Source of the DNA: Escherichia coli
Lineage (GTDB): Bacteria; Pseudomonadota; Gammaproteobacteria; Enterobacterales; Enterobacteriaceae
Assembly (NCBI RefSeq): GCF_048403405.1
Contig: NZ_CP183129.1
Length of the DNA: 64,000 bases
Direction: 5' to 3' (one strand)
Shown here piece by piece: positions 5,021 to 51,543 of the stretch. Made by a program: the position numbers and the translations under genes. Numbering within the stretch: the first letter of the stretch is position 1; every line of letters begins with the position of its first letter. The notes under the pieces are model-generated. The model had not been told where the DNA came from. It worked only from the letters and a program-made list of their open reading frames with translations, and searched no databases.

Positions 5021-7126
5021 TTAGTGCGCGCCTTTCGCCTGCGCCACGATCTCTTCGACATTTTCCGGCATCGGCTCATATGGCGTTTCTTTCGCCGTTG
5101 GCTTCGGCTCTTTCAATGCCGCCAGTGCCGTCTTAATCGAGAACAGCGCCAGAACCACCACGACCACCATAAAGAAGATGGTTAACCCGGCATCAAGACG
5201 GTTGTTGAATACCAGTTGCGCCAGCTGTGACTCAGTATACTGCGACGGAATATTGCCGCTGTCGATCATTGCCTGGAACTTATTAGCAATCGCCAGGAAG
5301 CCGACTTTCGCATCCGGGCTAAACGCTTTCTGCCAGCCTGCGGTCAGGGTACAAATCAGCAGCCAGGCCGTTGGTACCAGCGCCACCCAGGCGTAACGTT
5401 GACGTTTCATTTTGAACAGCACCACAGCACAGAGCATCAGCGCCATCCCTGCCAGCATCTGGTTGGCAATACCAAACAGCGGCCACAAGGTGTTAATACC
5501 GCCCAGCGGATCGACCACACCCTGATGGAGGAAGTAGCCCCACGCCAGTACGCACAGCGCCGTTGCCAGCAGGTTAGCAGGCAGTGAATCGGTCCGTTTC
5601 AGGCCCGGAGACACCACGCCCAGCAGATCCTGCAACATAAAGCGCGCAGCACGCGTACCTGCATCCACCGCCGTCAGAATAAACAGTGCTTCAAACAAAA
5701 TGGCGAAGTGATACCAGAACGCCACATCCATCATGCCGCCCAGCGCGCCGTGCAGAATGTAGGCCATCCCCACCGCCAGCGTCGGCGCACCGCCCGCACG
5801 GGAAATGATCGACTGTTCACCCACTTCGCTGGCAATCTGGTTGAGCGTATCTGGTGTAATGCTAAATCCCCAGCTACTCACCACCTGCGCGGCAGAAGCA
5901 ACCACATCCGCCGTACCTGCCGGAGCCAGCACCGCCATCGGGCTGTTCATAGCGAAGTACACACCCGGATCGATGATACAGGCGGAAACCAGCGCCATAA
6001 TCGCCACGAAGGATTCCATCAACATCCCACCGTAGCCGATAAAGCACGCCTGCCCTTCGTTCGCCAGCATCTTCGGTGTAGTGCCGGAAGAGATCAGTGC
6101 ATGGAAGCCAGACACCGCGCCACAGGCGATGGTGATAAACAGGAACGGGAACAGGTTACCGGTCCATACCGGGCCAGTGCCATCGACAAATTTAGTTAGC
6201 GCAGGCATGGTCAGCGTCGGGCGCATAATCAAAATGCCCACCGCCAGACCGACGATAGTCCCGATTTTCAGGAAGGTAGAGAGGTAGTCACGCGGAGCCA
6301 GCAGCAACCACACCGGCAGCACCGCCGCCACAAAACCGTAACCCACCAGCATCCAGGTCAGCTGCACGCCGGTAAAGTCAAAGTACGGTGCCCAGGTCGG
6401 ACTTTCTGCCACCCAGCCGCCAGAGATAATGGCGAAAATCAGGAATACCAGACCGATGACCGACACTTCACCAATACGCCCCGGACGCAGATAGCGCAGG
6501 TAGATCCCCATAAACAGCGCCAGCGGAATGGTGAACGCAACGGTATACGTTCCCCACGGGCTATGAGTCAGGGCTTTCACCACGATCATCGCCAGTACGG
6601 CAAGGATAATGACCATGATCATAAAGCAGGCCACCAGCGCTATCACCCCGGCGGTTGGCCCCATCTCTTCTTTGACCAGCTCACCCAGCGAGCGACCGTC
6701 ACGGCGCGTAGAAACAAACAGCACCATGAAATCCTGCACCGCACCGGCGAGAACCACCCCGGCGAGCAGCCAGATCATCCCCGGCAGGTAGCCCATTTGC
6801 GCTGCCAGCACCGGCCCAACCAGCGGACCTGCTCCGGCAATGGCCGCAAAATGGTGACCGAACAGCACTTTCTTGTCCGTCGGCACATAGTCCAGCCCGT
6901 CGTTATGGCGCACCGCTGGCGTCATACGCGTCGGGTCAACCGCCAGCACATTTTTGGCGATATACAGACCATAAAAACGGTAAGCGATCAGATAGATACA
7001 GACCGACGCCACCACAATCCACAGCGCGTTGATCTGTTCCCCACGATTTAAAGCAATGTATCCCAGAGCAAATGCTCCCATTACAGAGAGCACTGTCCAG
7101 ACGAGGTATTTCCCTGATTTGTTCAT
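5021..7126 (-). CDS. cstA: carbon starvation protein A (peptide/pyruvate transporter)
   Basis: 701-aa polytopic membrane protein ORF; matches recalled CstA. Confidence 0.95.
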   Translation of the reverse strand: MNKSGKYLVWTVLSVMGAFALGYIALNRGEQINALWIVVASVCIYLIAYRFYGLYIAKNVLAVDPTRMTPAVRHNDGLDYVPTDKKVLFGHHFAAIAGAGPLVGPVLAAQMGYLPGMIWLLAGVVLAGAVQDFMVLFVSTRRDGRSLGELVKEEMGPTAGVIALVACFMIMVIILAVLAMIVVKALTHSPWGTYTVAFTIPLALFMGIYLRYLRPGRIGEVSVIGLVFLIFAIISGGWVAESPTWAPYFDFTGVQLTWMLVGYGFVAAVLPVWLLLAPRDYLSTFLKIGTIVGLAVGILIMRPTLTMPALTKFVDGTGPVWTGNLFPFLFITIACGAVSGFHALISSGTTPKMLANEGQACFIGYGGMLMESFVAIMALVSACIIDPGVYFAMNSPMAVLAPAGTADVVASAAQVVSSWGFSITPDTLNQIASEVGEQSIISRAGGAPTLAVGMAYILHGALGGMMDVAFWYHFAILFEALFILTAVDAGTRAARFMLQDLLGVVSPGLKRTDSLPANLLATALCVLAWGYFLHQGVVDPLGGINTLWPLFGIANQMLAGMALMLCAVVLFKMKRQRYAWVALVPTAWLLICTLTAGWQKAFSPDAKVGFLAIANKFQAMIDSGNIPSQYTESQLAQLVFNNRLDAGLTIFFMVVVVVLALFSIKTALAALKEPKPTAKETPYEPMPENVEEIVAQAKGAH

Positions 7127-41170: not shown

Positions 41171-41990
41171 GGCACTGTTGCAAATAGTCGGTGGTGATAA
41201 ACTTATCATCCCCTTTTGCTGATGGAGCTGCACATGAACCCATTCAAAGGCCGGCATTTTCAGCGTGACATCATTCTGTGGGCCGTACGCTGGTACTGCA
41301 AATACGGCATCAGTTACCATGAGCTGCAGGAGATGCTGGCTGAACGCGGAGTGAATGTCGATCACTCCACGATTTACCGCTGGGTTCAGCGTTATGCGCC
41401 TGAAATGGAAAAACGGCTGCGCTGGTACTGGCGTAACCCTTCCGATCTTTGCCCGTGGCACATGGATGAAACCTACGTGAAGGTCAATGGCCGCTGGGCG
41501 TATCTGTACCGGGCCGTCGACAGCCGGGGCCGCACTGTCGATTTTTATCTCTCCTCCCGTCGTAACAGCAAAGCTGCATACCGGTTTCTGGGTAAAATCC
41601 TCAACAACGTGAAGAAGTGGCAGATCCCACGATTCATCAACACGGATAAAGCGCCCGCCTATGGTCGCGCGCTTGCTCTGCTCAAACGCGAAGGCCGGTG
41701 CCCGTCTGACGTTGAACACCGACAGATTAAGTACCGGAACAACGTGATTGAATGCGATCATGGCAAACTGAAACGGATAATCAACGCCACGCTGGGATTT
41801 AAATCCATGAAGACGGCTTACGCCACCATCAAAGGTATTGAGGTGATGCGTGCACTACGCAAAGGCCAGGCCTCAGCATTTTATTATGGTGATCCCCTGG
41901 GCGAAATGCGCCTGGTAAGCAGAGTTTTTGAAATGTAAGGCCTTTGAATAAGACAAAAGGCTGCCTCATCGCTAACTTTGCAACAGTGCC
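41171..41990 (+). mobile_element. IS26 (IS6 family), 820-bp copy 1
   Basis: Termini GGCACTGTTGCAAA ... TTTGCAACAGTGCC; internal 234-aa Tnp26. Confidence 0.95.
41234..41938 (+). CDS. tnpA: IS26 transposase Tnp26 (variant with His at residue 29)
   Basis: MNPFKGRHFQRDIILWAVRWYCKYGISY(H)ELQEM... recognised as the IS26 transposase. Confidence 0.95.
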   Translation: MNPFKGRHFQRDIILWAVRWYCKYGISYHELQEMLAERGVNVDHSTIYRWVQRYAPEMEKRLRWYWRNPSDLCPWHMDETYVKVNGRWAYLYRAVDSRGRTVDFYLSSRRNSKAAYRFLGKILNNVKKWQIPRFINTDKAPAYGRALALLKREGRCPSDVEHRQIKYRNNVIECDHGKLKRIINATLGFKSMKTAYATIKGIEVMRALRKGQASAFYYGDPLGEMRLVSRVFEM

Positions 41991-42439
41991 AATTTTACGC
42001 CGTCGGCGGTACGCAGCCAGCGCGGGGATTTGAGTCCTTCCGTGAAATTCCAGACCAGCTCACACAGCAGCCCGGTCAGGGTTTGCTCCATTTTTGGTTC
42101 CGCCGGACGTTCCAGCAGAAGCTGGAGTAGTGCGAGGCAGTATTCGCACAAGGAATCAGGTTCGGAAATAAAGTGCTCTGGTGTGGCGGGAAGGGTATCC
42201 ACGGTCAGGCTTTCGGTAAGATGCGGTGGGATGGGGTCGTGTAGTGTGGGTTGCAGTAGCGCAAGAGCCGCGTGAAGCCGCCCGCAGAGCGCCAGTCGTA
42301 GCGCTGGATCGTCGGTTTCAATCAGGGTTTCGGCAAAGCGGGCGCAGTAGTCAGCAAGGACAGTGAAATCCGTGGTGGCATTGAAGGGGACGGTCAATAG
42401 ATCGAGTAAATCGCTGTCAGTGGTGAGGATTGTAGCCAT
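41972..42439 (-). CDS. hypothetical acidic protein; 3' end runs into IS26 (probably truncated)
   Basis: 155-aa ORF with a GGAGG Shine-Dalgarno upstream of the ATG at 42439; its last codons and stop lie inside the IS26 inverted repeat. No family recognised. Confidence 0.45.
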   Translation of the reverse strand: MATILTTDSDLLDLLTVPFNATTDFTVLADYCARFAETLIETDDPALRLALCGRLHAALALLQPTLHDPIPPHLTESLTVDTLPATPEHFISEPDSLCEYCLALLQLLLERPAEPKMEQTLTGLLCELVWNFTEGLKSPRWLRTADGVKLALLQS

Positions 42440-42785: not shown

Positions 42786-45700
42786 TTATTTTGGCGGTAG
42801 CTTTTTGCGGTTCTTTGCCAACTGGAATCCTTCAGGTAACGGTTTGAATTTATCGCCGCCTTTAGGCCAGCGTTTTGCCCTGCTCTGAAATGCCCTTAAC
42901 GAGTCGATATCCAGCGTTGCAGCGACCACAAAGTCATTATCACCGCCCTTCACACGAGCAATATCACGCATAAAGGGTTCTTTTGCCGGGGAACGTACGC
43001 GACTATCGCCGTATTTTCGGTTATTCACTAAAATAGTATAGGCATGAATATCCAGCGCTGCTGATTCAATCAACGATGCAAACGTATCTAGATCTTTATT
43101 CCAGCTCAATACCATTAATGCATCGAGTGCGCCCTGAAAACGGATCCTCGCTTTACTATTCTGGAGTTCAGAGCAAATCATAACGCCAAAATTGACGCCG
43201 TGATGAATATATACCGGCTTACGTTGTTTAACATTAAGTGTCGAATCCCAAGACTTACCATAAGTTGAAAATAATGCCTCATCTTCACCTACGGCGGGTT
43301 CCAGCTTGGGTTGCCATATTTTGACACTCGCTGGATAGCCGAGTCTGTTATCTGAAAGGACAAGTACGGCCTCACTCTTCAGTTGATTATCGTCTAAGTG
43401 GCGGTATTCTGTTCCCGCAATTAGACTGATACCCGCCGAACTCAAACGATCAGCAATACTGTTAACCCAGCGTAACGGGATTGAAAGCTCAGGGAATAAA
43501 ACATAATCAGGTTTAGGAGATAGTTTCAATGTTGCATTAACCAGTTCAGAAATCCGCTGGTACCTTGAACGGGACAAGTTAGATTTATTGCAGGCCATTT
43601 TAGCCCAGTCGTCCTCCTCTGTTTTAATGCTGGTTAGCGCAACGACAACTTTATGTTTCCTGTCTGTGCCAATATGAATGAATTTCTTAGGCCGAGCTTT
43701 TTTTGTCGCTTCATCTGAGTCCTGCTCCGATGCTAGCAACGTCGGTTTGATCCATACTCCGCGTAATGCTTGAGTATATTTTGCCCAAATGGTGGACGGT
43801 CTCTCATCTGGTTTTTTGTCGGATGTGGAGGGTAATCCAACACATTCGGGGGCCAGTTCTGATATTTCAGCGGGTGTTAAAGGACGTGTAGGGAAAATGT
43901 AAGGTAGGTAACTTTCGTTTTTACGATTTCCTTTAGCCACTTTTTCCAGTCGGGTATTCTTGGTTGATTTCAAAAATAGCTTAATAACGTCAATATCAAT
44001 AAGCGATGAGTCGCTCATTAATTTCAGTATTTTAACTTCTTTTTTACTATCACGCTGATTAACAAGTTTTTCTGCCGACTGACTCTTTACGATCTGTTTA
44101 TAAGGTTCCTTTGCTAAATCAGCTCGAGCTACCAATGGCGCTTTTAAATAAAAATCTGCTGAATCAAAGCGAAGATCCAGTAAATCCTTTAGATTCGTCA
44201 GACTTTGTGAAATATGATTAAAAAATGTATCCGCAAGGCACTCTTCTTTCTTTGAACGTTTATCAAGAAATAATCTGTCAGGACTGTAATATCGTGTCGC
44301 TGCATCAACAAATAGCCAGCTTAATGTGCCTTTTATACAGCGCCAAAGATCATTTACTGCTCGAGTTTTGCAACCATTTATATTCACTTCCTTACCTGAA
44401 GTAATCACCGATGCCAACAGGTTGATGGATTCGTAAGCTTTAAGTACAATTTTTTCCGCGTGCTGCCATTCATTCATACTGATAGCAAAGCCAAGCAGCC
44501 TTGGCAGATAACTAAAATGTGCAAATAGATTATCAGCCCTAAGAATATGGTTGTAGGCAAACTGATAAAACTCTTCCCGCTGTTCTTTCCATTCACTTGG
44601 AGGCAGATCTCGTGCCAGTGTTTCAACGTAGCGTAATTGCAGTGACCAGCCCAAACGACGAATGGTTAATCCATCCGCACGGCGCAGAGTATCGGCATTT
44701 TCACCTACACTACCGGCAGCGGAAAGGACTTTAGCTGCGGTGGAGTGTTCCAGTTGATCCGGTGAAGGCATCAAGCGGTGTTCACTAGAAAGCTCGTAGA
44801 TCTCCTTTTCGATACTGTCGAGCAGGTCTATTCCAGCCCTCCCTTGAAGCACGAAAAGTTTTTGCTTATCGGATTGTAACTGGATGGTGGTCTTACCCTG
44901 GAAATGCTCGCCCTGCTGTATTTGCCATATTTGTTTTTGCTCGTTTTTCAAATAAACGCAATCATTGCCAAGCCTATCTTGCAGCAATAACATAAATTCG
45001 TGATTATTAGTAATTGTCCCTGTATCGCGTATTACAAGGAACATATCATCGACATAACGACCGTAGTGAATTGGTGATAGTTTTTCAATGACTAATTTAT
45101 CCCAATGGTGTAGCAATATATTTGAAATGATCCGACTGGCTGTTAATCCAATGACCAGACCACCATTAATAACAGGTGTTTTGTACGCTATTTTCTTTCC
45201 AAATGCCGCTGCGCCGTCAGACCAGTGCTTTAAGAATACTGCTAACTGTGCAGTAAACGCTTTTTCATCCTCAGTCAGTTTTATGTTTAGTGTGTTATAG
45301 AGATCATCAGAGGTTATAGCCAGTGGATCAATAAAATGATAGTAACTTTTTAAATCCAGTGAGGCGGCGATAATGTCACGATCTTTTTCCAACTCGTCAC
45401 GTATAGCTTTTAAGCCATCACCACGCCATTTTTGGTAGGGCTGGAAGTAGGGGCTAAAAGAACCCACGGCACTGATATGGAATGGATTATCCTGCTCATT
45501 GCTAAATAATTCATCATTACGAATACGCTTTAGCCGCGCGCCATAGCAACAGTTATCTAAGCTGGCATCAAATTTATGCCCGACCATGTTAATCCATAGT
45601 GCAGAGATAATGTGACTATCAACCGGGAAGTCACCAATAATACGAAACTCTGGTATCAGATCAAAATTATTAAATAAATGGTCGGCTGCTCGTTTAGGAT

Positions 45701-45995
45701 TAGAAAAGTGGACGTGTCCATTTTGGGATTCATGTTTTTTCTTTGTGGTTAATTTTTTCGGTAACAAACGAAATTTGCCAATCAACTTCTTATTGCTACT
45801 GAATCCATCTTCGCTCTGCAAAAGATCTAAGAGTTTTTGCAGGTTTTCAAGTAATTCCTGCTCATACTCGGCAAATTTGATAGCAACAGGAAATGTATTC
45901 TCAAAGAAGCTATCGGCTTTTGCTTTCCGGTAAGCGACCAGAAGGTCTTCAATCGTCAGATCATCCCAGCCAGTGAAAATTGCCTGATATGTCAT
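42786..45995 (-). CDS. reverse transcriptase-nitrilase fusion protein (DRT type 1 / UG1-like defence-associated RT)
   Basis: 1069-aa ORF with AAGGA Shine-Dalgarno. RT motif A ASLDLKSYYHFID, motif B GGLVIGLTASRIISNILL, motif C RYVDDMFLV (nt 45033-45059); C-terminal CN-hydrolase domain with FPELS (Glu836), VKIWQPK and GVMICSEL (Cys941, nt 43173-43175). Confidence 0.85.
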   Translation of the reverse strand: MTYQAIFTGWDDLTIEDLLVAYRKAKADSFFENTFPVAIKFAEYEQELLENLQKLLDLLQSEDGFSSNKKLIGKFRLLPKKLTTKKKHESQNGHVHFSNPKRAADHLFNNFDLIPEFRIIGDFPVDSHIISALWINMVGHKFDASLDNCCYGARLKRIRNDELFSNEQDNPFHISAVGSFSPYFQPYQKWRGDGLKAIRDELEKDRDIIAASLDLKSYYHFIDPLAITSDDLYNTLNIKLTEDEKAFTAQLAVFLKHWSDGAAAFGKKIAYKTPVINGGLVIGLTASRIISNILLHHWDKLVIEKLSPIHYGRYVDDMFLVIRDTGTITNNHEFMLLLQDRLGNDCVYLKNEQKQIWQIQQGEHFQGKTTIQLQSDKQKLFVLQGRAGIDLLDSIEKEIYELSSEHRLMPSPDQLEHSTAAKVLSAAGSVGENADTLRRADGLTIRRLGWSLQLRYVETLARDLPPSEWKEQREEFYQFAYNHILRADNLFAHFSYLPRLLGFAISMNEWQHAEKIVLKAYESINLLASVITSGKEVNINGCKTRAVNDLWRCIKGTLSWLFVDAATRYYSPDRLFLDKRSKKEECLADTFFNHISQSLTNLKDLLDLRFDSADFYLKAPLVARADLAKEPYKQIVKSQSAEKLVNQRDSKKEVKILKLMSDSSLIDIDVIKLFLKSTKNTRLEKVAKGNRKNESYLPYIFPTRPLTPAEISELAPECVGLPSTSDKKPDERPSTIWAKYTQALRGVWIKPTLLASEQDSDEATKKARPKKFIHIGTDRKHKVVVALTSIKTEEDDWAKMACNKSNLSRSRYQRISELVNATLKLSPKPDYVLFPELSIPLRWVNSIADRLSSAGISLIAGTEYRHLDDNQLKSEAVLVLSDNRLGYPASVKIWQPKLEPAVGEDEALFSTYGKSWDSTLNVKQRKPVYIHHGVNFGVMICSELQNSKARIRFQGALDALMVLSWNKDLDTFASLIESAALDIHAYTILVNNRKYGDSRVRSPAKEPFMRDIARVKGGDNDFVVAATLDIDSLRAFQSRAKRWPKGGDKFKPLPEGFQLAKNRKKLPPK

Positions 45996-46289
45996 GCGTT
46001 ATCGTCCTTAGATTACAGTCTGTACAGAATTAGCCAGCCGTTTCATGCCCGAAGGGGGGCTCTTGACACCAGTAATCCATCAGTGAGGCTGGCAATAATT
46101 TTGATTTGTATCCATGTTACACGCTCCCCGCAACCAGTCCGAGCATATATTTGTCACATTTTTCCCGAAAGTGATTAAGTTTGAATTTTTTGTTTAATGT
46201 CGATTTTTAGTCGACAAAATGAGGAATAAGTAAACTATTTCTTGCTGTGGCGTATCCCTGAATCTACACTGGTTTAAATATTTGTACTA

Positions 46290-47093
46290 ATGTCTATTCA
46301 GAGGCGACAGTTGCCAAACTATCTAAACTGGCTGATGCAGCACACGCTACCCGGCCAGGTGCTGCTCCAGTCATGGCTTACCCGCAACGGCATAGATCGT
46401 AAGCTCTCTTATCTCTATGTGAAGAATGGCTGGCTCAGGCGGATCGCTCACGGCGTATACTGCCGGACGGGCCGTGAGCCGGATTGGGTAGACGCGGTTT
46501 ACTGCCTTCAAACACAGTGGGAAAAGCCTGTTCGGGTGGCGGGGCTAACCAGCCTTGCGCTTCAGGGCCATGCGCACTATACCGAACCGGGTAAGCCGCA
46601 GGTCTGGCTCGCGCTTCCGGCTTACGTTAAGCTGCCGGGATGGTTTGCTGCCTTCGAACAATCTGCAACATTTATCACGCTGTATACATCGGGGCTTACC
46701 GTAGATGTAACGTCATTGACTACGGAACTGAAAATTGGCGACCGCCAGTTAGCAGGCAGTGCCCCGGAACTGGCCGCGTATGAGATCGCCTGCGGCGTTC
46801 CTTCGTTGATATCGTTCGAACATGCCGATGCTCTGTTTCAGGGGATGAATCTTCTCAGCCCACGCAAATTGCAGGCACTGCTTCGCGCCAGCCATTCGGT
46901 TAAAACCAACCGGGTGATGCTTTACCTTGCCCGGCGTAATGGACACCCTTATTTTCAGTATATTGATCAAAGCGGTATAGAAACAGGTACGGGAAAGCGG
47001 CAAATCATACCCGGCGGCTGGCTGGAGCCGGATTATCAAATTACTGTTCCACGCGCATTTAAACCGGAAGGAGTCGAAGATGGATCTGCGTGA
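46290..47093 (+). CDS. AbiEi-like antitoxin / transcriptional regulator (type IV TA)
   Basis: 267-aa ORF immediately upstream of, and overlapping by 14 bp, an AbiEii-like nucleotidyltransferase gene; N-terminal wHTH-like region with an R-x-x-x-G-V-Y motif. No clear Shine-Dalgarno, so the start is uncertain. Confidence 0.65.
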   Translation: MSIQRRQLPNYLNWLMQHTLPGQVLLQSWLTRNGIDRKLSYLYVKNGWLRRIAHGVYCRTGREPDWVDAVYCLQTQWEKPVRVAGLTSLALQGHAHYTEPGKPQVWLALPAYVKLPGWFAAFEQSATFITLYTSGLTVDVTSLTTELKIGDRQLAGSAPELAAYEIACGVPSLISFEHADALFQGMNLLSPRKLQALLRASHSVKTNRVMLYLARRNGHPYFQYIDQSGIETGTGKRQIIPGGWLEPDYQITVPRAFKPEGVEDGSA

Positions 47094-48000
47094 TAGCTAT
47101 GCCCGGCAGGTCAAACTGTTGATGGCCGCTCTGCCGTATGTGGCGAAGGAGTCCTGTTTCGCGTTGAAAGGCGGCACCGCAATCAATTTGTTTGTGCAGG
47201 ATTTTCCCCGTCTGTCGGTGGATATTGATCTGGCGTACAAGAGCTTTGCGGATCGCGATACTGATTTGGCGGCTATCAACGACGCTTTGAAGAGGATTAC
47301 TGCATCGCTGAACGGCAGACCGGGGATCACCGCGATTCGGCAGGAAAATAAAGCGGATGAAAAGCGCATCATTGTGAATACCGCTGATGCAAAGATTAAG
47401 ATCGAGGTTAGCCCGGTCTGGCGCGGGCTGTTGTTGCCTCCGGCAGAAATGCCTGTGTGCGAACGTGTGGAAATGGAGTATGGCTTCACCACCATGAGTG
47501 TCGTCTCGCTGGCGGATCTTTATGGCGGTAAAATCTGCGCTGCGCTTGATCGTCAGCACCCGCGCGATCTGTTTGATGTGCTGAATATGCTGGAGAAACC
47601 GGGACTGATGCGGGAGATCTTTGACGGTTTTCTTTGTTATCTGGCAGGCCATCCCCGCCCCATCGCCGAGTTGCTGGCTCCAAACTGGGATACAGAGCGG
47701 ATCGCCACGTTGTACGCGCAGGAATTTTCGGGGATGACTCAGCAGGAAACGTCGCTGGAATCGCTGCTGTCAGTAACGACTTTGCTGCCGCAGGCGTTGA
47801 AGTCACATCTTACGGATCTGGATCGCGAGTTCTTGCTCAGTTTTAAGCAAAACAGCCCTGACTGGTCGCGGTATCGCTATCCTGAAATTCAGCATCTTCC
47901 GGCTATTCGCTGGAAGCAACGTAATCTGGCGGTGCTGAAAGATAAAAATCCGGCGAAGTATGTGGCGGCGGTGAATAAGCTAGAGAGGGTGCTGGCGTAA
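47080..48000 (+). CDS. AbiEii-like nucleotidyltransferase toxin (DUF1814 family)
   Basis: 306-aa ORF with GGAG Shine-Dalgarno; N-terminal nucleotidyltransferase motif LKGGTAINLF...LSVDIDLAY typical of AbiEii/AbiGii toxins. Confidence 0.8.
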   Translation: MDLRDSYARQVKLLMAALPYVAKESCFALKGGTAINLFVQDFPRLSVDIDLAYKSFADRDTDLAAINDALKRITASLNGRPGITAIRQENKADEKRIIVNTADAKIKIEVSPVWRGLLLPPAEMPVCERVEMEYGFTTMSVVSLADLYGGKICAALDRQHPRDLFDVLNMLEKPGLMREIFDGFLCYLAGHPRPIAELLAPNWDTERIATLYAQEFSGMTQQETSLESLLSVTTLLPQALKSHLTDLDREFLLSFKQNSPDWSRYRYPEIQHLPAIRWKQRNLAVLKDKNPAKYVAAVNKLERVLA

Positions 48001-48364: not shown

Positions 48365-48689
48365 TGTACTGCACCCATTTTGTTGGACGATGAAATGGAA
48401 TAGCCCCTAATATGTCAAAGCCAAAATACCCTTTTGAAAAGCGCCTTGAAGTCGTGAATCACTACTTCACAACTGATGATGGTTACAGGATCATCTCGGC
48501 ACGTTTTGGTGTCCCCCGAACCCAGGTCAGGACATGGGTTGCCCTCTATGAAAAACATGGAGAAAAAGGTTTAATTCCCAAACCTAAAGGCGTTAGTGCT
48601 GATCCAGAGTTGCGTATTAAGGTCGTGAAAGCTGTGATCGAGCAGCACATGTCCCTTAATCAGGCTGCTGCTCACTTTATGCTTGCTGG
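48365..48689 (+). mobile_element. IS150 5' fragment (325 bp), truncated by IS26
   Basis: Begins with the IS150 terminal repeat TGTACTGCACCCATTTTG and is identical in protein sequence to the start of insJ in the full copy at 27720-29162; ends abruptly at the IS26 terminus. Confidence 0.9.
48412..48689 (+). pseudogene. insJ: insJ fragment (first ~92 codons of IS150 OrfA)
   Basis: MSKPKYPFEKR...AAAHFMLAG, then the frame reads into IS26. Confidence 0.85.
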
Positions 48690-49509
48690 GGCACTGTTGC
48701 AAATAGTCGGTGGTGATAAACTTATCATCCCCTTTTGCTGATGGAGCTGCACATGAACCCATTCAAAGGCCGGCATTTTCAGCGTGACATCATTCTGTGG
48801 GCCGTACGCTGGTACTGCAAATACGGCATCAGTTACCGTGAGCTGCAGGAGATGCTGGCTGAACGCGGAGTGAATGTCGATCACTCCACGATTTACCGCT
48901 GGGTTCAGCGTTATGCGCCTGAAATGGAAAAACGGCTGCGCTGGTACTGGCGTAACCCTTCCGATCTTTGCCCGTGGCACATGGATGAAACCTACGTGAA
49001 GGTCAATGGCCGCTGGGCGTATCTGTACCGGGCCGTCGACAGCCGGGGCCGCACTGTCGATTTTTATCTCTCCTCCCGTCGTAACAGCAAAGCTGCATAC
49101 CGGTTTCTGGGTAAAATCCTCAACAACGTGAAGAAGTGGCAGATCCCACGATTCATCAACACGGATAAAGCGCCCGCCTATGGTCGCGCGCTTGCTCTGC
49201 TCAAACGCGAAGGCCGGTGCCCGTCTGACGTTGAACACCGACAGATTAAGTACCGGAACAACGTGATTGAATGCGATCATGGCAAACTGAAACGGATAAT
49301 CAACGCCACGCTGGGATTTAAATCCATGAAGACGGCTTACGCCACCATCAAAGGTATTGAGGTGATGCGTGCACTACGCAAAGGCCAGGCCTCAGCATTT
49401 TATTATGGTGATCCCCTGGGCGAAATGCGCCTGGTAAGCAGAGTTTTTGAAATGTAAGGCCTTTGAATAAGACAAAAGGCTGCCTCATCGCTAACTTTGC
49501 AACAGTGCC
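48690..49509 (+). mobile_element. IS26 (IS6 family), 820-bp copy 2
   Basis: Same termini as copy 1, same orientation; one nucleotide differs from copy 1 (G at 48838 versus A at 41319). Confidence 0.95.
48753..49457 (+). CDS. tnpA: IS26 transposase Tnp26
   Basis: 234-aa ORF with ...GISYRELQEM..., the form recalled as canonical for Tnp26. Confidence 0.95.
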   Translation: MNPFKGRHFQRDIILWAVRWYCKYGISYRELQEMLAERGVNVDHSTIYRWVQRYAPEMEKRLRWYWRNPSDLCPWHMDETYVKVNGRWAYLYRAVDSRGRTVDFYLSSRRNSKAAYRFLGKILNNVKKWQIPRFINTDKAPAYGRALALLKREGRCPSDVEHRQIKYRNNVIECDHGKLKRIINATLGFKSMKTAYATIKGIEVMRALRKGQASAFYYGDPLGEMRLVSRVFEM

Positions 49510-51543
49510 AAACCGTTAGCGATTATGGTTCCGGCGTGGAATGAAACGGGCGTCATCGGCAATATGGCCGAGCTGGCGGCGACCACGCTCGACTATGAAA
49601 ACTATCATATCTTTGTTGGCACCTACCCCAACGACCCCGATACACAGCGTGATGTTGACGAAGTGTGCGCTCGCTTCCCGAACGTGCATAAGGTAGTCTG
49701 CGCGCGTCCTGGCCCCACCAGCAAAGCCGACTGCCTGAACAACGTGCTGGACGCCATCACCCAGTTTGAGCGTAGCGCCAATTTCGCTTTTGCTGGTTTT
49801 ATTCTGCATGACGCCGAAGACGTAATTTCACCGATGGAATTGCGTCTGTTCAACTATCTGGTCGAGCGTAAAGATCTGATTCAGATCCCGGTGTATCCGT
49901 TCGAACGCGAATGGACGCACTTCACCAGCATGACTTACATTGATGAGTTTTCAGAACTGCATGGCAAAGATGTTCCGGTGCGTGAAGCCCTCGCCGGACA
50001 AGTGCCCAGCGCAGGCGTCGGTACCTGTTTCAGCCGCCGCGCCGTGACCGCACTGTTAGCTGACGGTGACGGTATTGCTTTCGACGTGCAGAGTCTTACT
50101 GAAGATTACGACATTGGTTTCCGCCTGAAAGAAAAAGGTATGACGGAAATTTTTGTCCGTTTTCCGGTGGTGGACGAAGCCAAAGAACGCGAGCAGCGTA
50201 AATTTTTACAGCACGCGCGGACGTCAAACATGATCTGCATGCGCGAATATTTCCCTGATACCTTTTCGACTGCGGTTCGACAAAAATCTCGCTGGATCAT
50301 CGGCATTGTTTTCCAGGGCTTTAAAACCCACAAATGGACCTCCAGCCTGACGCTGAACTACTTTCTCTGGCGCGACCGCAAAGGGGCAATCAGTAACTTT
50401 GTCAGCTTTCTCGCGATGCTGGTGATGATCCAGCTTCTGCTGTTACTGGCGTATGAAAGTTTGTGGCCCGATGCCTGGCATTTCCTTTCTATTTTCAGCG
50501 GCAGCGCATGGTTAATGACCCTGCTGTGGCTAAACTTTGGTTTGATGGTTAACCGCATCGTGCAGCGGGTGATTTTTGTCACTGGCTACTACGGTCTGAC
50601 GCAGGGGCTGCTATCTGTCCTGCGTCTTTTCTGGGGCAACCTGATTAACTTCATGGCCAACTGGCGCGCGTTAAAACAGGTACTTCAACACGGCGATCCA
50701 CGTCGTGTCGCGTGGGATAAAACAACGCATGACTTCCCCAGCGTGACTGGCGATACCCGCTCGTTGCGCCCGTTAGGCCAAATTCTGCTGGAAAATCAGG
50801 TCATCACTGAAGAACAACTCGATACAGCACTGCGTAATCGCGTCGAAGGTCTACGCCTGGGCGGTTCAATGCTGATGCAGGGGCTGATTAGCGCCGAACA
50901 GCTGGCACAGGCGCTGGCAGAGCAAAACGGCGTGGCGTGGGAATCCATCGACGCCTGGCAGATCCCGTCCTCGCTGATTGCCGAAATGCCGGCCTCCGTG
51001 GCGCTGCATTATGCAGTGCTGCCGCTGCGTCTGGAAAATGATGAGTTAATTGTCGGCAGTGAAGATGGTATTGACCCGGTTTCGCTGGCGGCCCTGACGC
51101 GTAAAGTCGGACGCAAAGTGCGTTACGTCATTGTTCTGCGGGGACAAATTGTCACGGGGTTACGTCACTGGTATGCACGCCGACGCGGTCACGATCCGCG
51201 GGCAATGTTGTACAATGCGATTCAGCATCAGTGGCTCACGGAACAGCAGGCCGGTGAAATCTGGCGGCAATATGTGCCGCATCAGTTCCTGTTCGCCGAA
51301 ATACTGACCACGCTCGGTCATATTAATCGTTCAGCAATTAACGTGTTGTTATTGCGCCATGAACGCAGTTCTCTGCCGCTCGGCAAGTTTTTGGTCACCG
51401 AAGGCGTTATCAGCCAGGAAACGTTGGATCGCGTCCTGACAATTCAACGCGAATTACAAGTTTCGATGCAATCACTATTACTCAAAGCAGGTTTAAACAC
51501 AGAACAGGTTGCGCAACTGGAGTCCGAAAATGAAGGAGAATAA
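49510..51543 (+). pseudogene. nfrB: phage N4 adsorption protein B (glycosyltransferase family 2), 5'-truncated by IS26
   Basis: The frame is open from the IS26 junction; the first Met gives 672 aa against a recalled native length of about 745 aa, so N-terminal membrane segments and the promoter are missing. Confidence 0.85.

Follow-up and report, generated by a model that had tools for sequence, protein, structure and literature searches.

Paired 57-bp composite palindromes around the predicted abiE promoter of Escherichia coli as a probable operator for the antitoxin AbiEi

In a 64,000-nucleotide stretch of Escherichia coli DNA (contig NZ_CP183129.1; the whole of it is called the window below), the abiEi-abiEii toxin-antitoxin operon and a reverse transcriptase (RT) gene point away from each other, and the DNA between them carries a perfect inverted repeat. 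The locus raises the question of whether this palindrome is an operator, which protein would read it, and whether it would serve one or both of the genes beside it. A sequence-only reading had proposed it as a candidate AbiEi operator in a 294-bp divergent control region. The repeat TGTCGA-N7-TCGACA is present at 46198-46216, as TGTCGA (46198-46203), TTTTTAG and TCGACA (46211-46216), and the two neighbours had been named correctly (PADLOC RT_UG5-nitrilase for RT; Pfam AbiEi_3_N and AbiEi_3 for abiEi). The operator proposal gains support, since the arms are kept across abiE loci and move with abiE and since AbiEi is predicted to share the fold of AbiEi and Rv2827c. It can also be extended: the repeat is the core of a larger composite palindrome, O1, which has a counterpart, O2, nearer to abiEi. 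The elements concerned are the following.

46198-46216, no strand: core palindrome (inner arms of O1)
46179-46235, no strand: O1, composite palindrome GTTT-N15-TGTCGA-N7-TCGACA-N15-AAAC, 57 bp, centre 46207
46242-46270, plus strand: predicted abiE promoter P1, sigma-70-like, with -35 TTGCTG (46242-46247), 17-bp spacer and -10 TACACT (46265-46270)
46272-46328, no strand: O2, composite palindrome GTTT-N15-TGTCTA-N7-GCGACA-N15-AAAC, 57 bp, centre 46300
46311-47093, plus strand: abiEi, AbiEi_3-type antitoxin with a winged helix-turn-helix, 260 aa with the revised TTG start (Pfam AbiEi_3_N and AbiEi_3; PADLOC AbiEi)
47080-48000, plus strand: abiEii, nucleotidyltransferase toxin (Pfam AbiEii; PADLOC AbiEii, E=4e-116)

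The conservation of O1 was measured in a comparison set of 17 abiE loci with 81-100% protein identity from about 12 genera. Loci came from complete E. coli genomes, which have three abiE allele types, and from a genome-collection scan, which gave 14 loci at 81-92% AbiEi identity (Mixta, Atlantibacter, Affinibrenneria, Pectobacterium, Brenneria, Trabulsiella, Kluyvera, Symbiopectobacterium, Serratia, Lelliottia and an Enterobacteriaceae metagenome-assembled genome, MAG). A plasmid collection searched for homologues of intermediate identity gave a near-identical E. coli record, and every other match was below 60% identity. Once aligned, 15 of the 17 loci keep the arms TGTCGA/TCGACA while the 7-bp spacer and the flanks drift. 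O1 scores 18-20 of 20 specified positions in these 15 loci, the next-best window scoring 10-12, and its centre lies 104 nt ahead of the start codon in 13 of them. GTTT (46179-46182) and AAAC (46232-46235) are invariant and exactly mirror-symmetric around the palindrome centre at 46207. The information content is 2.0 bits in the outer tetramers and 1.7-1.8 bits in the arms, and 0.7-1.2 bits at the intervening and flanking positions. All 10 substitutions found in the O1 arms of relatives lower the pairing and none is compensatory, a pattern that favours a protein site whose two halves are read independently over a hairpin.

A repeat search had 46179-46216 recurring as a direct repeat (D1) at 46272-46309, within O2. 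O2 scores 17-20 in 17 of 17 loci and occurs also in Buttiauxella at 73% identity. The motif TGTC-N11-GACA has exactly two matches in the window, at the O1 and O2 sites (0.55 expected), and the 57-bp pattern with one mismatch tolerated likewise finds only O1 and O2 there and nothing in 100 shuffles. Across about 200 kb of related loci (30 loci with flanks), the pattern occurs at the equivalent positions only. Each composite palindrome consists of two half-sites of about 25 bp that face each other across 7 bp (consensus GTTTaa.taTtt....a..TGTCgA), and GTTT and TGTC keep a fixed spacing in all four classes of half-site. Furthermore, the O1 and O2 sites move with abiE, whether it stands beside RT, hsdR, tRNA-Phe ends or other neighbours.

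The two sites enclose the predicted promoter. P1 was found by a log-odds scan together with conservation; it is the best plus-strand match to the position weight matrix (PWM) in the region, and TTGnnn-17-TAnnnT is positionally conserved between O1 and O2 in relatives, e.g., TTGTGA-17-TATAAT in Serratia. A stricter consensus scan for promoters and terminators gave no match within the intergenic region at its threshold. A tandem upstream promoter (P2), good in sequence type ST131 E. coli, Lelliottia and Pectobacterium carotovorum, was rejected here as degenerate (TTTCCC, 15-nt spacer, TGAATT). There are 6 bp between O1 and the -35 hexamer and 1 bp between the -10 hexamer and O2, so that a core promoter of 36 bp is sandwiched between them. 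With transcription predicted to start near 46277, O2 would therefore extend over about positions -5 to +52 of the transcript and take in the ribosome-binding site; it spans the Shine-Dalgarno sequence GAGG (46301-46304) and the TTG start codon. The abiEi and abiEii genes overlap by 14 nt, and O1 and O2 lie directly upstream of this bicistronic operon.

The start of abiEi is most likely TTG at 46311 rather than ATG at 46290, judging from alignment and annotation, a shift of 21 nt that corrects the start adopted in the first reading. TTG 46311 is the RefSeq/PGAP start and gives a 260-aa protein; it is invariant and is preceded by the conserved GAGG. The codon at -21 is ATG in just 3 of the 17 related loci, and three loci have an in-frame stop before the TTG. 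Homologues at 43-50% identity start four codons ahead of a conserved LNW motif, the same as TTG. The 294 bp of the divergent region thus hold as counted from the RT start codon (45995-45993, minus strand) to the ATG at 46290, and become about 315 bp with the likelier TTG start. The palindrome, placed about 74 bp before abiEi in the first reading, ends 94 nt before the TTG.

The predicted protein fits a DNA-binding role. A sequence search found no relative of this AbiEi with a solved structure in the PDB. The AlphaFold2 model (21 homologues; mean predicted local distance difference test score 91) has an H1-S1-H2-H3-S2-S3 winged helix at residues 3-52, an order described for AbiEi (PMC3985639). 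The top four Foldseek matches of the model are chains of Rv2827c (1ZEL, E 7e-9) and Streptococcus agalactiae AbiEi (6Y8Q, E 5e-7). RKLSY, the putative recognition helix, does not vary within the clade that has TGTCGA arms and differs in two clades at about 50% identity, whose inner arms differ too; this covariation, from three clades only, is consistent with recognition of the arms by this helix. The outer GTTTA/TAAAC motif is kept across all three clades. Upstream of an AbiEi_3 homologue of 43% identity (L025:2900-3000), (T)AGTTTA(G/T) occurs six or seven times, in direct and inverted orientation; this hints that GTTTA could be the motif recognised family-wide in AbiEi_3, with the TGTCGA arms specific to one clade.

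The closest geometry among known operators is that of Rv2827c, the MenA3/AbiEi homologue of Mycobacterium tuberculosis, a two-domain winged helix-turn-helix antitoxin encoded, as here, upstream of a DUF1814 nucleotidyltransferase toxin. Rv2827c is an autorepressor and was shown by electrophoretic mobility shift assay to bind two 23-13-23 inverted-repeat pairs in Prv2827c (Beck et al. 2020, PMC7319586), with a monomer on each repeat. In both systems two inverted-repeat pairs lie within about 130 bp of the start codon, one of them overlapping the promoter/start region, and the pairs are of similar size (23-13-23, or 59 bp, in Rv2827c and 25-7-25, or 57 bp, here). Unlike the present pairs, which are predicted to be bound and stand 36 bp apart with the core promoter between them, those of Rv2827c are adjacent with a 4-bp gap; the repeat sequences are unrelated, and the proteins belong to different Pfam subfamilies with 16% identity. 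In S. agalactiae, AbiEi autorepresses the bicistronic abiEi-abiEii operon from a 23-3-23 inverted-repeat pair, one monomer per repeat (Dy et al. 2014, PMC3985639; Hampton et al. 2018, cited there). The fold is the same at 12-13% protein identity, and transcription there starts about 26-34 nt before the start codon, like the prediction here. The S. agalactiae site is a single 23-3-23 pair containing the -35 and -10, whereas two 25-7-25 pairs flank the promoter here; its best-conserved bases are at the outer ends, whereas here both outer (GTTT/AAAC) and inner (TGTCGA/TCGACA) blocks are conserved. The repeat ends, TGTTGC/GCAACA there and TGTCGA/GCGACA here, are only loosely alike.

Within the same Pfam subfamily (AbiEi_3), AbiE-2 of Serratia sp. 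ATCC 39006 was shown to work as a toxin-antitoxin pair of type IV (Hampton et al. 2020, PMC7725324). Its cloning required about 200 bp of native upstream DNA, and over-expression of the toxin raised the chromosomal antitoxin mRNA, which the authors read as autoregulation (PMC7725324); no operator was mapped in that study. The cloning primer encodes MSSK..., and AbiE-2 is therefore placed in the clade at about 50% identity that lacks the TGTCGA arms. In 2014 the AbiEi_3 (DUF2893) branch was described as homologous, and no published operator map for it was found in the literature. The present sites most likely reflect antitoxin self-control of the ordinary kind in a subfamily without a mapped operator, and they provide a concrete operator model for this branch of type IV toxin-antitoxin/abortive-infection systems.

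The site architecture, its conservation across genera and its strict linkage to abiE are observed, and the fold is taken from the AlphaFold2 model. On these grounds, it is probable that AbiEi negatively autoregulates abiE while bound to four half-sites around the promoter, with binding, its stoichiometry and repression being predicted from the sites, as is the transcription start. AbiEi on O1 and O2 would repress its own abiEi-abiEii operon: occupation of O2 would block the binding or escape of RNA polymerase, and occupation of O1 would occlude the UP-element region, possibly in cooperation with O2.

Several observations weigh against this autoregulation model. Within this single sequence, the palindrome and the two other motifs flagged at first (a TTGACA hexamer and an eight-bp palindrome, both treated below) are at chance level. 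In 2000 Markov shuffles of the 294 bp, at least two perfect inverted repeats with 6-bp arms (spacer 0-20) occurred in 47% (P=0.47; mean 1.7 per 294 bp), at least two eight-bp palindromes in 35% (P=0.35; mean 1.25), and TTGACA on either strand in 18%. Only the palindrome is raised above chance by the comparative data on abiE loci from about a dozen enterobacterial genera. The ST131-type allele, the commonest in E. coli (552 records), has an imperfect right arm, TGGACG; E. coli TB06052, Mixta and Buttiauxella keep O2 without O1, so that O1 is dispensable or auxiliary. The conservation of O2 is explained in part by the Shine-Dalgarno sequence, the start codon and the coding sequence, and that of its right half is not independent evidence, as that half is coding sequence. 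P1 fits the consensus at 7 of 12 positions in the window and was missed by the stricter scan. Where protein identity falls to 43-50%, only the outer GTTTA/TAAAC can still be recognised, and the inner arms cannot. Finally, the centres of O1 and O2 are 93 bp apart (89 bp in Lelliottia), a non-integral number of helical turns; DNA looping between the two sites was considered and dropped, as this spacing gives no clear case for helical phasing.

The origin of the DNA on the RT side bears on whether the palindrome could also serve the RT gene. The features to the left of O1, together with the leftward promoter candidates, are the following.

42786-45995, minus strand: UG5-large reverse transcriptase-nitrilase, 1069 aa (PADLOC RT_UG5-nitrilase, E=0, residues 1-1068)
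45996-46056, minus strand: RT leader, with a conserved Shine-Dalgarno sequence AAGGA (46009-46005), a relic of the 3' end of a 277-aa gene, and CTGTACAG
46057-46086, no strand: junction segment of 30 bp with TTGACA, between the relic and the start of abiE-linked homology
46087-46178, no strand: abiE-linked upstream DNA, in which homology to the ST131 abiE allele begins at about 46087; holds candidate A
about 46112-46155, no strand: conserved block CCATGTTACACG...CCGAG, within the abiE-linked upstream DNA
46142-46137 (-35) and 46119-46114 (-10), minus strand: leftward promoter candidate A, TCGGAC-17-TAACAT, PWM 6.0-7.4, weak
46214-46209 (-35) and 46190-46185 (-10), minus strand: predicted leftward promoter candidate B, TCGACT-18-AAAAAT, inside O1

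In Salmonella, Citrobacter, Yersinia and a metagenome, homologues of RT with about 75% identity close an operon of the order hsdR-hsdM-hsdS-KwaA-like (184 aa)-277aa-RT, in which only 12 nt lie between the 277-aa gene and RT. Here, the RT leader from 45996 to about 46056 aligns to the 3' end of the 277-aa gene of Salmonella, Citrobacter and Yersinia, with RLANSVQ kept after a 2-nt deletion. In Salmonella the whole six-gene operon stands divergently beside abiE, and its intergenic DNA holds O1, promoter, O2 and upstream block as here. ST131 E. coli shares the thrW island backbone and carries hsdRMS where RT stands here. Judged by these alignments, the best explanation of the RT-abiE junction is that an island of the form abiE|hsdRMS-...-RT lost an internal segment reaching from hsdR to the 277-aa gene.

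A deletion scar calls for caution in giving regulatory meaning to RT-proximal motifs. The first reading had listed two of these as features of the control region, TTGACA at about 46063 and CTGTACAG near 46020. Both are present (46063-46068 on the plus strand and 46020-46027, respectively), but both fall in a stretch absent from the RT-abiE loci of Serratia and UBA5654. As a -35 box, TTGACA, which is oriented towards abiE, was rejected: no -10 follows at 16-18 bp (best GAGGCT), and the segment is missing from other RT-abiE loci. The junction segment 46057-46086 has no homology to the ST131 hsdR leader or to the Serratia and UBA5654 RT loci and matches nothing else; among E. coli it is found at this locus only, so a repeated element (REP or insertion sequence (IS) fragment) was likewise rejected. 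CTGTACAG is relic coding sequence instead of an operator or LexA-like site. By sequence comparison, then, TTGACA and CTGTACAG are relic or junction DNA and not regulatory features. A 10-codon open reading frame (ORF) from ATG 46197 within the palindrome (MSIFSRQNEE*) was also set aside, the ATG being absent in Serratia and Symbiopectobacterium and the stop not conserved.

The best surviving alternative, compatible with autoregulation, is that O1-bound AbiEi also controls the leftward unit, which is RT here and was hsdRMS-...-RT ancestrally. The first reading had pointed out that the region must hold the RT promoter. This is topologically true, and since the RT-proximal DNA is by comparison a promoterless relic of an operon-internal junction, RT transcription would be expected to start in abiE-linked DNA. 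Candidate B favours shared control, with its -35 formed by the right arm of O1 and its -10 by the conserved T-tract in the left half. It scores PWM 6.8 in the window and 8.6-8.7 at the same position in UBA5654, Salmonella and Kluyvera, and the T-tract is more conserved than the equivalent segment in the other half-sites. Divergent abiE and hsdR genes around an intergenic region of this architecture are found again in Salmonella, ST131 E. coli and Brenneria. Against these points, candidate A is also positionally conserved, 70-118 nt upstream of whatever gene lies leftward, and it is wholly outside O1, 37 bp off. Both candidates are weak, scores of 6-7 are common in AT-rich DNA, and any AT-rich palindrome yields -10-like and -35-like strings. 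In 9-10 abiE loci that differ in their left neighbours, the block 46112-46155 (CCATGTTACACGCTCC...CCGAGCATATATTTG) hardly varies, and it is more conserved than a weak leftward promoter match (TCGnnn-17-TAACAT) would explain; nothing beyond that match was found for its function.

The neighbourhoods also speak against shared control. Yersinia has the same RT operon without abiE and with a small helix-turn-helix gene ahead of it; in Vibrio and Alloalcanivorax, also without abiE, RT follows an SMC_N/AAA_13 ATPase gene with a 4-nt overlap. These arrangements indicate that the RT family is not generally tied to abiE. The pairing of RT with abiE was seen only in E. coli, Serratia and UBA5654 and, at a distance, in Salmonella; the Serratia marcescens and UBA5654 MAG loci have the same divergent pair with a shorter spacer of 266 bp. 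Elsewhere abiE stands with hsdR, with DUF4747 or without cargo, the last in several genera. In divergent pairs of the tetR/tetA type, two units are consistently paired in evolution around a single operator that covers both core promoters. Here the two units are not consistently paired, and of the two leftward promoters, both weak predictions, candidate B lies inside O1 and candidate A outside it. On balance, control of the leftward unit by AbiEi is possible but rather unlikely. If true, it would be an example of the antitoxin of a toxin-antitoxin system coordinating a neighbouring defence system.

A broader version, in which AbiEi is the gatekeeper of a composite defence island, with interleaved -35 boxes in the O1 core and the cargo operon repressed too, is more doubtful still. 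Were it so, loss or titration of a labile antitoxin in phage attack would de-repress restriction and RT defence together with the toxin. The ST131 allele (L001, E. coli O25b:H4, 6085-6114) offers a separate observation: immediately ahead of hsdR, a good leftward promoter with a score of 10.3 (TTGAGC-18-TACATT) overlaps O1 in its left half, and the corresponding positions are degenerate in this window. Control of hsdR by AbiEi in that allele looks more plausible than control of RT here.

That the sites are bound by another factor or have another role in the DNA (a host global regulator, a recombination or attachment site for exchanging the cargo beside abiE, a nucleoid-protein site) is improbable. 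The cargo to the left of abiE is variable (RT, hsdRMS, DUF4747 and others), many loci lie at tRNA-Phe or tRNA-Thr islands, and the N15 segments are AT-rich tracts, all of which would suit such a role. On the other side, the cargo junctions have no fixed place (that of ST131 is at about 46087, those of TB06052 and Mixta between the two sites), and a global regulator would be expected to have more sites than a motif found nowhere else in the window or in the flanks of the 30 loci. Furthermore, abiEi is the sole DNA-binding gene that always accompanies the sites, and the inner arms change along with the AbiEi recognition helix. Autoregulation by AbiEi remains the preferred account of these observations.

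A hairpin (an RNA leader or attenuator, or a DNA cruciform) or a mere chance palindrome is scarcely credible, even though the core could form an 8-bp stem (-7.9 kcal/mol) and chance alone supplies about 1.7 such inverted repeats per 294 bp: the arm substitutions all reduce pairing without compensation, O1 lies upstream of the predicted abiE promoter and hence outside the abiE mRNA, both leaders fold no better than shuffles (z=0.14 for the RT leader and z=0.92), Rfam gives no match even at permissive E-values, and chance is excluded by arms that are kept across genera while the spacers drift.

The RT gene itself belongs to the UG5-large RT-nitrilase module (bioRxiv 10.64898/2025.12.16.694600; Mestre et al. 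2022, PMC9226505), and the neighbour here is a full-length UG5 RT-nitrilase. Its protein has no Pfam match; 988 homologues were found, and the E. coli allele is clonal, with all of its 260 genomes at least 95% identical. A search for a structured noncoding RNA (ncRNA) near RT gave no Rfam match, the RT leader fold has z=0.14, and the 60 bp next to RT are coding relic. Likewise, the UG5 preprint found no ncRNA, and upstream DNA was not needed (bioRxiv 10.64898/2025.12.16.694600). The locus thus resembles the Sinorhizobium meliloti UG5 system in showing no sign of an adjacent ncRNA, a likeness that concerns the neighbour gene only and not the palindrome, and no adjacent template ncRNA of the kind that accompanies DRT2-, DRT3- and DRT9-like RTs was seen. 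Unlike the UG5 module, RT here is the displaced last gene of an hsdRMS-KwaA-like-277aa-RT operon. Six-gene operons of this type were seen at L030:2605-13216 (Salmonella) and L031:2752-13219 (Yersinia). Such an organisation suggests that a type I restriction-modification system and an RT defence module have become physically fused.

About 15% of complete E. coli genomes (832/5426), ST131 included, have the abiE locus, and the reconstructed deletion history of the island is, with the AbiEi_3 operator model, a useful by-product of the analysis. One record with the RT-abiE locus, and only one, is filed as a plasmid (NZ_CP146678.1, E. coli MS 69-1, 64,057 bp); the strain otherwise has chromosomes, and the record may be a chromosomal fragment filed as a plasmid. 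The E. coli abiE loci lie in the tRNA-Thr (thrW) island, together with an ash-family gene and integrase remnants. Six other abiE loci (L004, L005, L006, L007, L012, L016) are downstream of a tRNA-Phe gene, with a gap of 0.6-1.2 kb in L004, L005, L012 and L016. In Affinibrenneria, two identical abiE copies lie inverted about 28 kb from each other, and each of them is accompanied by a truncated hsdR remnant.

A protein of about 155 aa without a Pfam match (MATI.T...LL.VPF.A.TDF..LAD.C..FAETL) is encoded at 41972-42439 on the minus strand of the window. It occurs also beside abiE in Pectobacterium, Trabulsiella, Symbiopectobacterium, Brenneria and Buttiauxella (L007:399-860; L009:1527-1994; L013:3459-3857; L023:4742-5209), and its place in E. 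coli is just past the cargo, RT or hsd; it appears to belong to the island backbone. On the other side, downstream of abiEii (48412-49457 and 49525-51543), an IS26-type transposase gene interrupts an IS3-family orfA fragment, and an NfrB-like glycosyltransferase ORF comes next. Strain 7/2 has ykgR and a LysR-family gene after abiEii, which indicates that the right flank of the locus in the window was rearranged by IS26.

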